This document shows, piece after piece, positions 18,221 through 22,291 of a stretch of 44,102 nt of DNA; positions within the stretch are counted from its first letter, which is position 1, and every line of letters begins with the position of its first letter. A model generated the notes under the pieces. That model was not told where the DNA came from, did no database searches, and was given only the letters and a program-made list of their open reading frames with translations. The position numbers and the translations under genes were made by a program. The stretch is from Pseudomonadota bacterium (GTDB lineage: Bacteria; Pseudomonadota; Alphaproteobacteria; Rhodospirillales; 2-02-FULL-58-16): positions 1 through 44,102 of the forward strand of contig JADFTO010000001.1 of assembly GCA_022560215.1 (NCBI GenBank), given 5' to 3'.

Positions 18221-21200
18221 TCAGGACGCCATGCTGGTCTCCTTGGGCGCTGTCTTCGGCGTCTCCCCGGGCCGATCCTGGCCCCTTTCCGAAGCCAGCT
18301 TCTTCTTGTCGGGCTTGCCGATCAGGGTCTTCGGAAGCTGGTCCCGGAACTCGATCTCGCCGGGGCGCTCGATGGGCGAGAGCTTGTCGTCGAGGAATTC
18401 CAGCAAGGCTCTAGCGCTTAAACTTTCGCCTTCCCTCACCTTGACGAAGGCCTTGGGGCTCTCGCCGCGGTAGGCGTCGGGCACGCCGATGACGGCCACC
18501 TCGGCCACGGCGGGATGGAGGCTGATGGCTTCCTCGACGATCCTCGGATAGACGTTGTATCCGCCGCAGAGGATCAGCTCCTTCAGCCGGTCGATGACGA
18601 ATACATACCCTTCACGATCCATGTATCCGATGTCGCCGGTATGCAGGCAGCCGTCGGGGAGCGTCTCGGCCGTTTCCTCTTCGTTGTTCCAGTAACCGGC
18701 CATGACCTGGGGCCCGATGACGCAGATTTCGCCATTCTCCCCTATCGGCACGGGCATGTCCCTATCTTTGAGGGAGTGAATTTCCACCACCGTCTGCGGC
18801 AGGGGGATGCCGATGGACCCTTCCTTCCGGGTGCCGCCGACCGGATTGCAGGCGACCACCGGGGAGGCCTCGCTGAGGCCGTAGCCCTCGACCAGGACGC
18901 AGCCGGTCAGTTGCTCGAAACGGTCCTTGATGTCCATGTGCAGGGGGGCGCCGCCCGAGATGCAGAACTTGATCGAGGAAAGGTCGTAGTCGTCCAGGTC
19001 GCGGCGTTCGTTGATGGCGGCGAAAATGGTGGGAACGCCGGGGAAGATCGTCGGCCGGTCGCCGTCGATGGTCTTCAGGACCTGACCAATCTCGAAACGC
19101 GGCAGCAGGATCAGCTCCGCCCCCGAGGCGATGCCGAGGTTCATGACCGTGGTCATGGCGAAGACGTGAAACAGCGGCAGCACGGCCAGGATCCGCTCCC
19201 GGCCCTGCTCCATCGCCGGGTACCAGAGGCGGACCTGCTCGGTGTTCGCCGAAAGATTGGCGTGGGTGAGCATGGCCGCCTTGGGCGTCCCCGTCGTGCC
19301 GCCGGTGAATTGGAGCACGGCCAGGTCCTGCCTGGGATCGATCTCCAGCCGCCCGACGTCGCCGTCGTTGGCGGTGAGTTCCTCGAAGGTGGTCAGCCGG
19401 GCGTCCTTGGGGATGGAGGCGATCTCGCTTCTTCTCAGCACCGAGAACAGGAGGCCCTTGACGGCGGGCAGGATGCCGCTCATCGGGCAGACGATCAGCC
19501 TTTTCAGCCCTGTGCGCTCCAACAGGCGGGCCACCTTCGGGTAGATCTGCTTCAAGTCGAGCGTGACCATGATCTCGGTCCCGGAATCCTCGATCTGCTG
19601 GATCAGCTCCCTCTCGACGTAGAGGGGATTGTAATTGACCACGGTGCCGCCGGCCTTGAGGATGGCGTAATAGCAGATCACGAAGTATGGCGTGTTGGGC
19701 AGGCATAACCCGACCCTCGTCCCCTTGCCGACGCCGAGGTCCTGGAACCCCTTGGCGGCCCTGTCCACCAGTTCGCCCACCTCCCGGTAGGTATAGCCCT
19801 TGCCGAGAAAGTCCAGGCACGGCCTTTCCGCGAAAAGGCGGGCCGATTCGTCCATCAGGGAATGGACGGTCCTGTCCCGGATCGGCTCGGCCCAGTTCAG
19901 GCCCTGGGGATAGTAGGGCAGCCACGGGTGGACGGGCTCGGCTTCCGGCAGGAAGGCGTCCGCCCCGATGACGATCCTGGGGGCCTCGACCGGAGCCGTT
20001 GGGACGAGCGAGCGGATGAAACCGGCGACCAGCTCCTGGCTGCCGCCGATGTCTTCGTTCAAAATGCCGTGGCGGTCCGAGGCCACCATGTGGAGGGTTT
20101 TTTGCCCGCTCCCCAGCCTGTCCCGGATCCTCTCCCCGCTTTTCGGATTGACCACCTGGTCCCCCGTGCCTTGCAGGATGGTGACCGGGCATTGGACATC
20201 CCCCAGCCGGCGCTTGAGCTCGTCGGCCATGAGGCGAATCTCGTAGAGCCCGCGCACGGGCATGTTCCGGTAGTTGATGTCGGGGTGCTCCGAATCGTTC
20301 GCTCGAAAGGGCATCACGCCCTCGAAGGAGGACACCCAGCGGACCAGCTTGTTGGCGCCGTGGATCAGGGGCACGAAAACCAGGTTCCTGTTGCGGAACT
20401 TGAGCGGCGCCGAGACGGCCGCCACGCCGGCGAGCCTGTCGGGCTTCTCGGCGGCCAGAATGAGGGACAGCGCCCCGCCAGTGGAAAACCCGACCAGGCA
20501 AATGCGCTCGGCGAACGCCTGCATGATGCGATAGCCGCGGCGGACGGAATCCAGCCAGTCCCGCCAGCTTCGGCCCCTCAGGTCCCAGGGCGACGTGCCG
20601 TGGCCCTTGAGGCGGACGCCGATCACCGGATAGCCCTCGGCCCTCAGTTTTTCGGCGAAGCCGCGGAGTTCGGCGGGAGAGGCGAGGAACCCGTGCACCA
20701 TGACGATGCCCAGCCCCTTGGGATTCTCAGGCAGGAACAGGTAGGGCTCGGCGTTTGCCGTGGCCGTCTCCTGGTCGTTGATGTTCTTGTACTGGGCAAG
20801 CGAGAAAAACCGCTTGTTCCAGGAAAAGGCGGCCATCTCGTCGTCGAACAGCAAATGCGCCAGGGCCTTGTCGTCCCGTTTCGAGGCGTCTTCCATGGCC
20901 CGCCGGACCGCGCGCCGGGCGGCTGCCACGGGGGCGACCTCGTTGGCGTAGACGAGGATGAAATTCTCCAGGCGCACTTCGTGGAACGAGTGCTCTTCCA
21001 GCATCTTGGGCATGAACCGGTAGCCTTCCGCGCCCCTCTTCACGAGGCCGGATTCCGTCGCCGTCTTCAGGAACTGCTCGAGACCCGGGGAGCGGCCGTC
21101 CAACACGCCGTCGTAACCGGCGGGCACCTCCAGGCTGCGATGGAGGTGGATGGAGGGCTCCTGCCGCGCGTACTTGATCGCCAGGTAGAGGGTCCTGTGG

Positions 21201-22291
21201 AAGGTCTCGTAATCGACCTCCATCCGGCCCCCGTCCACTAAGGAACAGAAGATCAGCGACGCCAGGTGGCTGAGGTTGACGGTGACGCCCGAGTACATGG
21301 CGTGCATGTAGGCGTCGCGCATTCGCAGGTACCTCCGGCCGAGTTTCCTGGCGATGAACTTTTCGTCCAGCCGCCGGGCGCCGTCATCCAGGTCAAACAG
21401 CTGATCCAGGGACTCCATGCGCCGGACCAGCTTGGCGAGCAGTTTCCTGTCCCACCAATGCAAGACCTTTCCCGGGTCTTCCGGATCCCCCAGGCGTATG
21501 TCCATGTCGGTGTTCTTGAGCAGGATGTTCCCCTCGATGAGGAGTTCCTCGGACAACCGCTCGCTCAGGCCCCTGGCGAAGAATTCCACGCCCTTGTGCA
21601 GGATGTTGTCGCTGACGCGGATCGGATAAAAGGTGATGTTGGCGGGAACCAGCAGGGACGGCCGCCGGGCCGCGGCCAGCAGGTCGTCGGTCCCATCCAT
21701 CCCCAGAATCCCCGCCCACCTCCTGAGGGTGGGCGTATCCCCGTCCTTGTGGATTTCCAGGATGCCCGCCTTGAAGGCTTCCAGGGTGAGGGCCAGGACG
21801 GCGGCGCCCGTGTGGTGCTTGCGGCGCTCCCTGGAGGTGCTCGAATAGATGCTGTAGGCGCCCTGTTCGTCCAGGACCCGGCGGTCCTTCACCATGCCGC
21901 CTTCGGGGAACACGATGACCTTCCGCCCGCGCAGGATCTCCTCGGCGAGGAAGGGCAGCAACCGGGGATAGTCGTGGGGCACGGCGCCGAGCCCCATCAG
22001 ATAGTTGGAAAAGACGTCGTCCTTGTCGAAGAATTCGCTGGCCGCGACGGAACGGCAGTAGGCCCCGGTCTCCTGGTGAATCAGGTATTGGGGGATGAAG
22101 GTCTCGAAGCGCGCGAAGTGGTTGAAAAGGAATATCTGGCCCGAGGCGAGCAAGTCCTTGCGGCCGCACAGCCTGATGTTGACGCTGAGCCTCGACCTCA
22201 GGGCCGAGAGCACCCGGACGGTGAGGGCGCAAGCCGCCTCGTTGATCTCGAAATCGCTTTCCTCGAAGGCGTATTCATCGGTCATGGACAT
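18221..22291 (-). CDS. Tri-domain fusion: LPLAT/PlsC-like acyltransferase, alpha/beta-hydrolase (lipase/esterase-like) and long-chain acyl-CoA synthetase (1356 aa)
   Basis: Single uninterrupted ORF. Start placed at MSMTDEY (22291); the ORF track starts at 22336. N-terminus has NHFARFE (H-x4-E in place of H-x4-D) and VIVFPEGG. The middle has HGF...GFSTGG nucleophile elbow with later D (GTGDQVV) and H (DRHG). The C-terminus has TGGTTGTPK, GYGLSE and TGDIGYMDREGYVFVIDRLKELI adenylation motifs. Confidence 0.85.
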   Translation of the reverse strand: MSMTDEYAFEESDFEINEAACALTVRVLSALRSRLSVNIRLCGRKDLLASGQIFLFNHFARFETFIPQYLIHQETGAYCRSVAASEFFDKDDVFSNYLMGLGAVPHDYPRLLPFLAEEILRGRKVIVFPEGGMVKDRRVLDEQGAYSIYSSTSRERRKHHTGAAVLALTLEAFKAGILEIHKDGDTPTLRRWAGILGMDGTDDLLAAARRPSLLVPANITFYPIRVSDNILHKGVEFFARGLSERLSEELLIEGNILLKNTDMDIRLGDPEDPGKVLHWWDRKLLAKLVRRMESLDQLFDLDDGARRLDEKFIARKLGRRYLRMRDAYMHAMYSGVTVNLSHLASLIFCSLVDGGRMEVDYETFHRTLYLAIKYARQEPSIHLHRSLEVPAGYDGVLDGRSPGLEQFLKTATESGLVKRGAEGYRFMPKMLEEHSFHEVRLENFILVYANEVAPVAAARRAVRRAMEDASKRDDKALAHLLFDDEMAAFSWNKRFFSLAQYKNINDQETATANAEPYLFLPENPKGLGIVMVHGFLASPAELRGFAEKLRAEGYPVIGVRLKGHGTSPWDLRGRSWRDWLDSVRRGYRIMQAFAERICLVGFSTGGALSLILAAEKPDRLAGVAAVSAPLKFRNRNLVFVPLIHGANKLVRWVSSFEGVMPFRANDSEHPDINYRNMPVRGLYEIRLMADELKRRLGDVQCPVTILQGTGDQVVNPKSGERIRDRLGSGQKTLHMVASDRHGILNEDIGGSQELVAGFIRSLVPTAPVEAPRIVIGADAFLPEAEPVHPWLPYYPQGLNWAEPIRDRTVHSLMDESARLFAERPCLDFLGKGYTYREVGELVDRAAKGFQDLGVGKGTRVGLCLPNTPYFVICYYAILKAGGTVVNYNPLYVERELIQQIEDSGTEIMVTLDLKQIYPKVARLLERTGLKRLIVCPMSGILPAVKGLLFSVLRRSEIASIPKDARLTTFEELTANDGDVGRLEIDPRQDLAVLQFTGGTTGTPKAAMLTHANLSANTEQVRLWYPAMEQGRERILAVLPLFHVFAMTTVMNLGIASGAELILLPRFEIGQVLKTIDGDRPTIFPGVPTIFAAINERRDLDDYDLSSIKFCISGGAPLHMDIKDRFEQLTGCVLVEGYGLSEASPVVACNPVGGTRKEGSIGIPLPQTVVEIHSLKDRDMPVPIGENGEICVIGPQVMAGYWNNEEETAETLPDGCLHTGDIGYMDREGYVFVIDRLKELILCGGYNVYPRIVEEAISLHPAVAEVAVIGVPDAYRGESPKAFVKVREGESLSARALLEFLDDKLSPIERPGEIEFRDQLPKTLIGKPDKKKLASERGQDRPGETPKTAPKETSMAS

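Follow-up and report, generated by a model that had tools for sequence, protein, structure and literature searches.

Why should a single bacterial polypeptide carry an acyltransferase, an esterase and a fatty-acid-activating enzyme, and why should its gene stand at the head of a beta-oxidation operon? The question is raised by a gene on contig JADFTO010000001.1 of a Pseudomonadota bacterium of the Rhodospirillales (GenBank assembly GCA_022560215.1), the whole 44,102-bp stretch of which was analysed here and is called the window. The protein is built from known enzyme kinds. Our comparisons establish the identity of its domains, the integrity of their catalytic motifs, the conservation of gene order around it and the recurrence of the fusion, in which a separate family of ~765 amino acids (aa), made of an acyltransferase and an esterase, is joined to a FadD-type acyl-CoA synthetase (ACS) that is otherwise an operon neighbour.

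We tentatively propose, with a confidence that falls a little short of even, that the fusion protein stands at the entry to beta-oxidation as a module for acyl-chain turnover or salvage, which would free and activate acyl chains and then degrade or re-esterify them. The esterase would act on a monoacyl or lyso-type lipid ester and set a fatty acid free, and the synthetase on the same polypeptide would turn that fatty acid into acyl-CoA. The acyl-CoA would then either be degraded by the co-encoded thiolase, FadB and FadE, or serve the acyltransferase domain in re-esterifying an acceptor. We infer the activity of all three domains, the order of their reactions and their substrates.

Results

The fusion gene is a single intact reading frame

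The minus-strand open reading frame (ORF) at 18221..22336 has 1371 codons from a TTG start. Its first ATG, at 22291, gives a protein of 1356 aa (MSMTDEY...), and the public gene call for the contig starts two codons later, at 22285, giving 1354 aa. Residues are numbered here on the 1356-aa version; 15 must be added to obtain the numbering of the 1371-aa ORF used in the first-pass annotation of this DNA. The GC content at third codon positions (GC3) is 0.80-0.92 in each 100-codon block, and this evenness indicates that one frame is coding throughout, with no sign of a frameshift. Other contigs, from NCBI, Logan and ENA, supply nine further sequences at least 90% identical to the window protein, eight of the nine being full-length at 1354 aa, and independent fused orthologues occur at 57-88% identity. 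A sequencing or assembly artefact joining two genes is ruled out by these three observations, and a frameshift or mis-join is excluded for the 1356-aa ORF. The first-pass annotation had described one uninterrupted ORF and advised resequencing to exclude hidden frameshifts. The even coding bias and the recurrence of a same-length protein in independent assemblies, eight other contigs in all, bear out the description. All motif coordinates agreed upon re-translation (Table 1). No transmembrane segment is predicted in the fusion protein, and the gene probably encodes a soluble or peripheral three-enzyme polypeptide.

Table 1. Parts of the fusion protein and neighbouring genes, in window coordinates.
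Feature	Position	Strand	Basis or remark
Tri-functional fusion protein, complete coding sequence	18221..22291	-	1356 aa; public start 22285
Acyltransferase core, GPAT/LPLAT-like N-module, aa 36-268	21488..22186	-	weak PF01553, hhalign to Aas, Foldseek
Motif I NHFARFE, aa 57-63, H58...E63 (H-x4-E dyad)	22103..22123	-	conservation, re-translation
Motif III FPEGG, aa 128-132, then MVK in place of PlsB RSR	21896..21910	-	conservation
Helical C-terminal subdomain, GPAT_C-like, aa 269-510	20762..21487	-	Foldseek GPAT1, weak GPAT_C in relative, conservation
bMGL/Est30-type alpha/beta-hydrolase, aa 515-762	20006..20749	-	Pfam, PDB profile, Foldseek, invariant triad
Esterase nucleophile S603 in GFSTGG	20474-20491	-	invariant
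Esterase D711	20159-20161	-	invariant
Esterase H741	20069-20071	-	invariant
Linker, aa 763-790, predicted disordered	19922..20005	-	low pLDDT, junction comparison
FadD-type acyl-CoA synthetase, aa 791-1336	18284..19921	-	Pfam, NCBIfam, motifs
Thiolase	17055-18191	-	29 nt after fusion-gene stop
FadB-like 3-hydroxyacyl-CoA dehydrogenase/enoyl-CoA hydratase (3HCDH/ECH)	14727-17054	-	abuts thiolase
FadE-type acyl-CoA dehydrogenase, 807 aa, ATG 14694	12274-14694	-	32 nt spacing
Short-chain dehydrogenase/reductase (SDR), last gene of tight cluster	11466-12254	-	19 nt spacing
Aldehyde dehydrogenase, divergent, upstream of fusion gene	22835..24340	+	neighbour analysis

The N-terminal module is a compact GPAT-type acyltransferase

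The first 525 residues (the N-module) contain an acyltransferase core. The Pfam model PF01553 (Acyltransferase) matches the window protein at aa 50-169 with 19.1-20.3 bits, below its gathering cut-off of 23. It matches 18 of 27 close relatives at E <= 0.01, and five homologues at 27-33% identity (P0206, P0208, P0267, P0250 and P0139) exceed the threshold with 24-33 bits. The motifs NHFxRFE and FPEGG are invariant in the close relatives (n = 110), and H58, E63, P129, E130 and G131 are invariant also in 10 distant relatives at 26-29% identity; K135 and about 20 further polar residues of the N-module are likewise invariant down to 26% identity. When the N-module family was compared by hhalign with E. 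coli Aas (probability 76%, E = 2e-5), NHFxxxE fell on NHVSFID and FPEG on FPEG; with E. coli PlsB (E = 1e-3) motifs I and III aligned, NHFARFE with HRSHMD. An AlphaFold2 (AF2) model of aa 1-525, with a predicted local distance difference test score (pLDDT) of 82, had human GPAT1 (PDB 8e4y) as its best Foldseek match (E = 6e-7, probability 1.0, 489 columns), and also matched PlsC (5kym, probability 0.99) and PatA (5f2z, probability 0.93). The sequence profile of the N-module gave marginal matches only against the PDB (E 0.2-0.4) and nothing at E <= 1 against NCBIfam, which holds no model for the first 525 residues. The acyltransferase call is nonetheless confirmed despite the sub-threshold Pfam score, because the motifs are invariant, relatives pass the Pfam threshold, the family aligns with Aas and PlsB, and the fold matches those of GPAT1, PlsC and PatA. 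The LPLAT/PlsC-like domain proposed in the first-pass annotation, with its H-x4-E dyad and FPEGG block, thus stands on conservation and fold.

The low Pfam score, the Glu in place of Asp in the dyad and the poor modelling of aa 131-158 beside motif III (pLDDT below 50) could also be taken as marks of a catalytically inactive domain that binds lipid or acyl-CoA, or has a targeting or regulatory role. The protein would then be an esterase-synthetase pair like mycobacterial Rv1683, in which the domain order is reversed relative to the fusion protein and an acyltransferase module is absent. We regard this as highly improbable, given that the invariance of H58, E63, the P/E/G at 129-131, K135 and the other polar residues has the pattern of an active site. 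Moreover, H-x4-E is a working variant of the dyad in the same superfamily, in LpxL-type acyltransferases.

The acceptor may differ from that of the best-known members of the superfamily. The arginines of motifs II and III are absent, with LGAVPHD and EGGMVK in the window protein against GAFFIRR and EGGRSR in PlsB/PlsC, and glycerol-3-phosphate or lysophosphatidate is not supported as acceptor. Since these phosphate-binding arginines are not conserved, the acceptor could be something other than a (lyso)phospholipid.

Behind the core lies a region that the first-pass annotation had described as ~290 aa of helices without recognisable family. The Foldseek alignment with GPAT1 spans 489 of the 525 N-module residues, helical part included, at a TM-score of only 0.42 and 13% identity. 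A distant relative (P0224) has a weak match to PF19277 (GPAT_C) in the helical region (21.9 bits, below the cut-off of 25), and the PlsB-type GPAT 9vuq_E gives weak matches that are co-linear along the N-module sequence. Residues Y333, N339, H342, H384, R440, N450 and E451 of the helical subdomain are invariant. In an all-against-library search, the 525-aa query matched its relatives full-length as one stretch, and the helical part never occurred without the core. Because the GPAT1 alignment spans the whole module and a relative carries the weak GPAT_C match, the helical region most likely forms, in our reading, the C-terminal half of a single compact acyltransferase module of GPAT/PlsB type. 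A separate novel domain at aa 246-530 (in the 1371-aa numbering) was also considered, but is disfavoured by the alignment of the region with GPAT1 and by its never being found apart from the core.

A monoacylglycerol-lipase-type esterase and a FadD-type synthetase complete the protein

The second part is matched by Pfam Hydrolase_4 at aa 529-746 (E = 3e-23, 82.6 bits against a cut-off of 27), and S603, D711 and H741 are invariant in 110 relatives together with the oxyanion residues H533-G534 (HGF). The profile of the esterase family matched the bacterial monoacylglycerol lipases 7e0n, 5xks and 3rli in the PDB at E 1e-39 to 1e-35, and Est30 carboxylesterases too. Its AF2 model superposed on bacterial monoacylglycerol lipases with TM-scores of 0.81-0.87 (Foldseek), the best structural matches being monoacylglycerol lipases with bound lipid analogues. 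On these criteria the domain is a clear member of the bMGL/Est30 group and a predicted serine esterase, and the alpha/beta-hydrolase noticed earlier from its GFSTGG elbow, Asp and His is upheld by family, triad and fold alike. The AF2 model of aa 1-790, with a predicted TM-score (pTM) of 0.84, points to the acyltransferase and the esterase being packed in a fixed, rigid arrangement. Residues 766-790, by contrast with this packed part, have pLDDT below 50 and are predicted to be flexible; this linker stands where split versions have a stop codon and an intergenic spacer.

The third part has Pfam matches to AMP-binding (aa 814-1201, E = 3e-86) and AMP-binding_C (aa 1252-1326, E = 5e-19), and the ANL motifs TGGTTGTPK (P-loop) at 996, GYGLSE at 1136, TGD at 1218 and GKPDKK, the motif of the C-terminal catalytic Lys, at 1325. 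NCBIfam models of FadD-type long-chain-fatty-acid-CoA ligases span aa 788-1336 end to end at ~490 bits. Scores stay below equivalog level (490 bits against cut-offs of 766-1116; PimA, 447 against 706), so that the domain is placed as a family member with no substrate assigned. It is a predicted long/medium-chain acyl-CoA synthetase of FadD type, as the first-pass annotation had recognised in naming a FadD-type adenylation domain. The same annotation had set the protein beside Aas, an inner-membrane protein of E. coli that loads acyl carrier protein (ACP). The synthetase is FadD-like (CoA) instead, and its alignment with Aas, 361 aa long, shows only 29% identity. This low figure beside the ~490 bits to FadD models, the absence of a predicted transmembrane segment, and fad rather than lplT neighbours together rule out that the protein belongs to the Aas family.

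These features bear on a second explanation, a one-protein Lands cycle, in which the fusion protein would deacylate a membrane (lyso)phospholipid, activate the fatty acid and re-acylate the lysolipid, with beta-oxidation only disposing of the removed chains. All three activities that it needs are present as intact motifs, and the "deacylation/reacylation machine" of the first-pass annotation is in that sense a plausible reading; Aas is a precedent for an acyltransferase-synthetase in lysolipid re-acylation, and stand-alone family members in non-catabolic contexts (see below) fit a housekeeping role. We nevertheless consider such a cycle unlikely. The residues of the PlsB/PlsC motifs that bind phosphate are not kept here, the esterase looks like a monoacylglycerol lipase or carboxylesterase rather than a phospholipase A, and the synthetase is closer to FadD than to Aas. 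To this are added the missing transmembrane segment and the gene neighbours, since no LplT-like flippase was found among the genes adjoining the fusion gene.

A ~765-aa family has been fused repeatedly to the neighbouring synthetase

Searches with aa 1-790 showed that the acyltransferase-esterase part is a family of its own, comprising hundreds of proteins of ~760-800 aa at 55-65% identity, whose database labels include "alpha/beta fold hydrolase". An exhaustive search gave 403 clusters at 50% identity, nearly all of 700-800 aa, and the two-domain architecture, esterase included, is retained down to 27-33% identity. Judged by this conservation, acyltransferase and esterase appear to form an ancient, tightly conserved unit of ~765 aa. 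The family is present in 572 of 185,579 species genomes (~0.3%; one genome per species), mainly in Rhodospirillales and other Alphaproteobacteria, in Gammaproteobacteria (Sedimenticola, Chromatiales, Methylococcales), in Acidobacteriota and in Binatia. Most carriers are metagenome-assembled genomes; cultured ones are Virgifigura deserti, with a fused form, and Sedimenticola species (unfused in Sedimenticola selenatireducens). Five distant relatives of ~430-500 aa (P0212, P0220, P0222, P0236 and P0261; 26-29% identity) appear to have a GPAT-like N-module alone, without esterase, with NHFTxxET and YPEG kept. Literature searches for a characterised member of the family or of the architecture found none, which agrees with the statement of the first-pass annotation, and yielded analogies only (ABHD-type proteins, Rv1683).

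We surveyed the gene neighbourhood of the family in the 80 closest species genomes, running tblastn with the window proteins and clustering the neighbouring ORFs. The only recurrent neighbours were the FadB-like gene (29 loci), the orthologous ACS (28), the thiolase (21) and FadE (20), and in 34 of the 80 genomes the family gene belongs to this same cluster of beta-oxidation genes. The ACS is fused in frame in 10 genomes, is a separate gene directly downstream in 15, is adjacent but divergent in sequence in four (Methylococcales), and stands elsewhere in the cluster in two, while three have beta-oxidation genes with no ACS nearby. No lipid genes are nearby in 37 genomes, and a contig end is too close for a call in nine. 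Fused forms also make up 11 of 120 best matches, and a unique architecture is ruled out by both counts.

A neighbour-joining tree without support values spreads the fused forms over at least four clades, with split forms interspersed. Their junction peptides differ in length, from about 10 to 85 aa, and are unrelated in sequence; in one clade, the junction contains the N-terminal extension that the separate ACS of split relatives carries. Because fused and split forms interleave and the junction sequences are unrelated, we conclude that the fusion has in all probability arisen repeatedly, by loss of a stop codon. In the lineage of the window, the ACS appears to have been joined by stop-codon loss and read-through of the spacer. 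What the first-pass annotation had viewed as an Aas-like enzyme with an inserted lipase is instead a pre-existing ~765-aa acyltransferase-esterase family repeatedly fused to an adjacent FadD gene. Two orthologues from one metagenomic sample differ in the same respect, the fused one (P0023) standing in the same operon and the unfused one (P0025) in an unrelated context.

Several unfused contexts deserve mention in their own right. In four Methylococcales loci (L062, L072, L083 and L084) the family gene is followed by an AMP-binding gene 35-37% identical to the window ACS and by a FadB-like gene (45-56%). A thiolase (71% identity) comes after the ACS in L062 only, and none was detected in L072, L083 or L084; this arrangement may be a variant cluster. 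In seven Sedimenticola loci (L042, L047, L051, L058, L060, L068 and L074) the unfused gene lies ~300-450 nt downstream of an AMP-binding gene, itself preceded by genes for a CBS-domain protein and a DnaQ-like exonuclease. We considered whether this gene might tie the family to fatty-acid activation a second time, and rejected the idea. The gene encodes an acetate-CoA ligase (1094 bits against a cut-off of 657), so that we put the adjacency down to synteny within the lineage, without a functional connection. In three ENA metagenome contigs (L001-L003, positions 9334-10014 / 10001), the unfused gene begins within the last 14 nt of a PilZ-domain gene, an overlap that suggests co-transcription with a PilZ protein that binds cyclic di-GMP.

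The fusion gene heads a beta-oxidation operon

The first-pass annotation had placed the fusion gene at the head of a beta-oxidation operon, and the closely spaced thiolase, FadB-like, FadE and SDR genes that follow on the same strand (Table 1) agree with it. A consensus promoter scan of the operon found no promoters, and terminator-like sites were no commoner than in shuffled sequences, so that these scans were uninformative.

The aldehyde dehydrogenase and SDR genes are relevant to a third explanation, in which the substrates would not be glycerolipids but other fatty-acyl esters, for example wax esters, acylated small molecules or hydroxy-acid oligomers, and the acceptor of the GPAT-fold domain would carry no phosphate. 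These two enzymes could oxidise a released fatty alcohol, and in Virgifigura deserti the same cluster is bordered at its FadE end by an aldehyde dehydrogenase 66% identical to that of the window (L044, 20156-21589); yet the aldehyde dehydrogenase and the SDR were seen at no more than one or two loci, and do not count among the recurrent neighbours. The deviation of motifs II and III from enzymes that bind phosphorylated acceptors and the broad carboxylesterase character of Est30-type esterases fit such substrates. The best matches of the two domains, to monoacylglycerol lipases with lipid analogues for the esterase and to GPAT1 for the N-module, do not, and we judge this explanation quite unlikely.

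The rest of the window holds other gene groups. After a gap of 227 nt, the fad/SDR cluster is followed directly downstream by same-strand genes for an ATP-binding cassette (ABC) importer (6840-11238, minus strand), namely a solute-binding protein (10156-11238, SBP_bac_6/8), a 733-aa permease with two BPD_transp_1 stretches (7931-10132) and a TOBE_2 ATPase (6840-7934). Inositol-catabolism-like genes at 1813-6811 encode an IolD-like thiamine pyrophosphate (TPP) enzyme (1813-3468), a KduI/IolB-family protein (4870-5688) and a GFO/IDH/MocA oxidoreductase (5813-6811), and adjoin a transaldolase-family gene (3649-4731). On the other side of the fusion gene, a PsrABC-like respiratory module (24688-29675, minus strand) comprises a molybdopterin oxidoreductase (25380-27995), a 4Fe-4S subunit (28902-29675), an NrfD-type membrane subunit (27931-29178) and a TorD/NarJ-like chaperone (24688-25383). 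An MlaC-family lipid-binding protein (32653-33273, minus strand) is encoded beside a Sel1-repeat protein (31802-32650, minus strand), at a distance of about 10 kb from the fusion gene.

Discussion

A proposed role in acyl-chain turnover or salvage

The proposal that the fusion protein frees, activates and re-uses or degrades acyl chains must be weighed against several points. The acyltransferase score of the window protein is below the Pfam cut-off, and the motif II and III arginines that would go with a glycerol-3-phosphate or lysophosphatidate acceptor are missing. About half of the sampled genomes have a ~765-aa gene without a beta-oxidation or ACS neighbour (Acidobacteriota, Sedimenticola), and its frequent occurrence outside fad clusters implies that its core job does not depend on the beta-oxidation operon. 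It is not obvious what an acyltransferase would do in an operon that is purely catabolic, and an esterase, a synthetase and an acyltransferase working on one substrate would amount to a futile, ATP-consuming cycle unless donor and acceptor specificities differ. All these count against the proposal, and our confidence is kept below even in particular by the half of the family that is found away from fad clusters and by acceptor-binding residues unlike those of the known glycerol-phosphate acyltransferases.

The apparent idleness of an acyltransferase in a catabolic operon would disappear in a further explanation, the disassembly of lipids with the acyltransferase running in reverse. One ester-bound acyl chain of a diacyl lipid would be transferred to CoA with no need for ATP; the esterase would free the second chain from the monoacyl product and the synthetase would activate it, and both chains would enter beta-oxidation as acyl-CoA. 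Every domain would thereby have a role, the esterase being indeed nearest to enzymes that act on monoacyl substrates, and some LPLAT-family enzymes do catalyse CoA-dependent reverse transacylation. Making a thioester from an oxygen ester is, however, thermodynamically uphill, half of the family stands outside beta-oxidation clusters, and the sequence gives no sign of the direction of the reaction; we also know of no bacterial GPAT/PlsC-type enzyme that physiologically runs in reverse. We therefore find this explanation improbable. Its furthest extension, that the GPAT-fold/esterase unit and the fused synthetase form a self-contained converter of acyl lipids to acyl-CoA, feeding whole acyl lipids into beta-oxidation through a backward-working acyltransferase, is more improbable still. 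If true, it would give a GPAT-type enzyme a physiological catabolic role that has not been described in bacteria.

Turnover or salvage at the entry to beta-oxidation thus remains the reading that we tentatively favour. The analysis provides a functional lead for an unstudied ~765-aa family, in which a GPAT-fold acyltransferase with an H-x4-E dyad is joined to a monoacylglycerol-lipase-type esterase, and the recurrent FadD fusion serves as a Rosetta stone that ties this family to fatty-acid activation and beta-oxidation. Its additions to the first description of the locus are the placing of the helical region in the acyltransferase module and the recognition of the protein as a recurrent fusion of this family with its FadD operon neighbour. 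If the coupling is true, it would show how esterified fatty acids are routed to degradation or re-use in many environmental Alpha- and Gammaproteobacteria, Acidobacteriota and Binatia, a process poorly mapped outside E. coli (Aas/LplT) and mycobacteria.

Comparison with known systems

Mycobacterial Rv1683/BCG1721 combines an acyl-CoA synthase with a lipase/esterase and has been linked to triacylglycerol hydrolysis (PMC3503283). Compared by its published description, it resembles the fusion protein in uniting synthase and lipase/esterase in one bacterial protein. The esterase domain taken alone is close to bMGL of Bacillus sp. H257, the Geobacillus 12AMOR lipase and Est30 (profile E 1e-39 to 1e-28, TM-scores 0.77-0.87), with which it shares the HGF motif and the Ser-Asp-His triad. 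However, bMGL and Est30 are free-standing enzymes of ~250 aa, whereas here the domain is fused behind an acyltransferase module, at 20-27% identity.

The N-module is most similar to acyltransferases of the GPAT1/PlsB type (PDB 8e4y; E. coli PlsB), which share with it an acyltransferase core and probably also the helical C-terminal region that follows, and motifs I and III align with PlsB. It differs from them in being much shorter and fused to an esterase, in its H-x4-E dyad, and in lacking the arginines of motifs II and III as well as membrane segments.

Finally, E. coli Aas (b2836; 2-acylglycerophosphoethanolamine acyltransferase/acyl-ACP synthetase) has, like the protein described here, an N-terminal LPLAT-type acyltransferase and a C-terminal ANL fatty-acid-activating domain on one polypeptide. 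Unlike the fusion protein, Aas has neither an esterase nor a GPAT_C-like subdomain, and its dyad is H-x4-D. The two also differ in their genomic company, as the aas gene adjoins the lysophospholipid flippase gene lplT, whereas the fusion gene adjoins fad genes.

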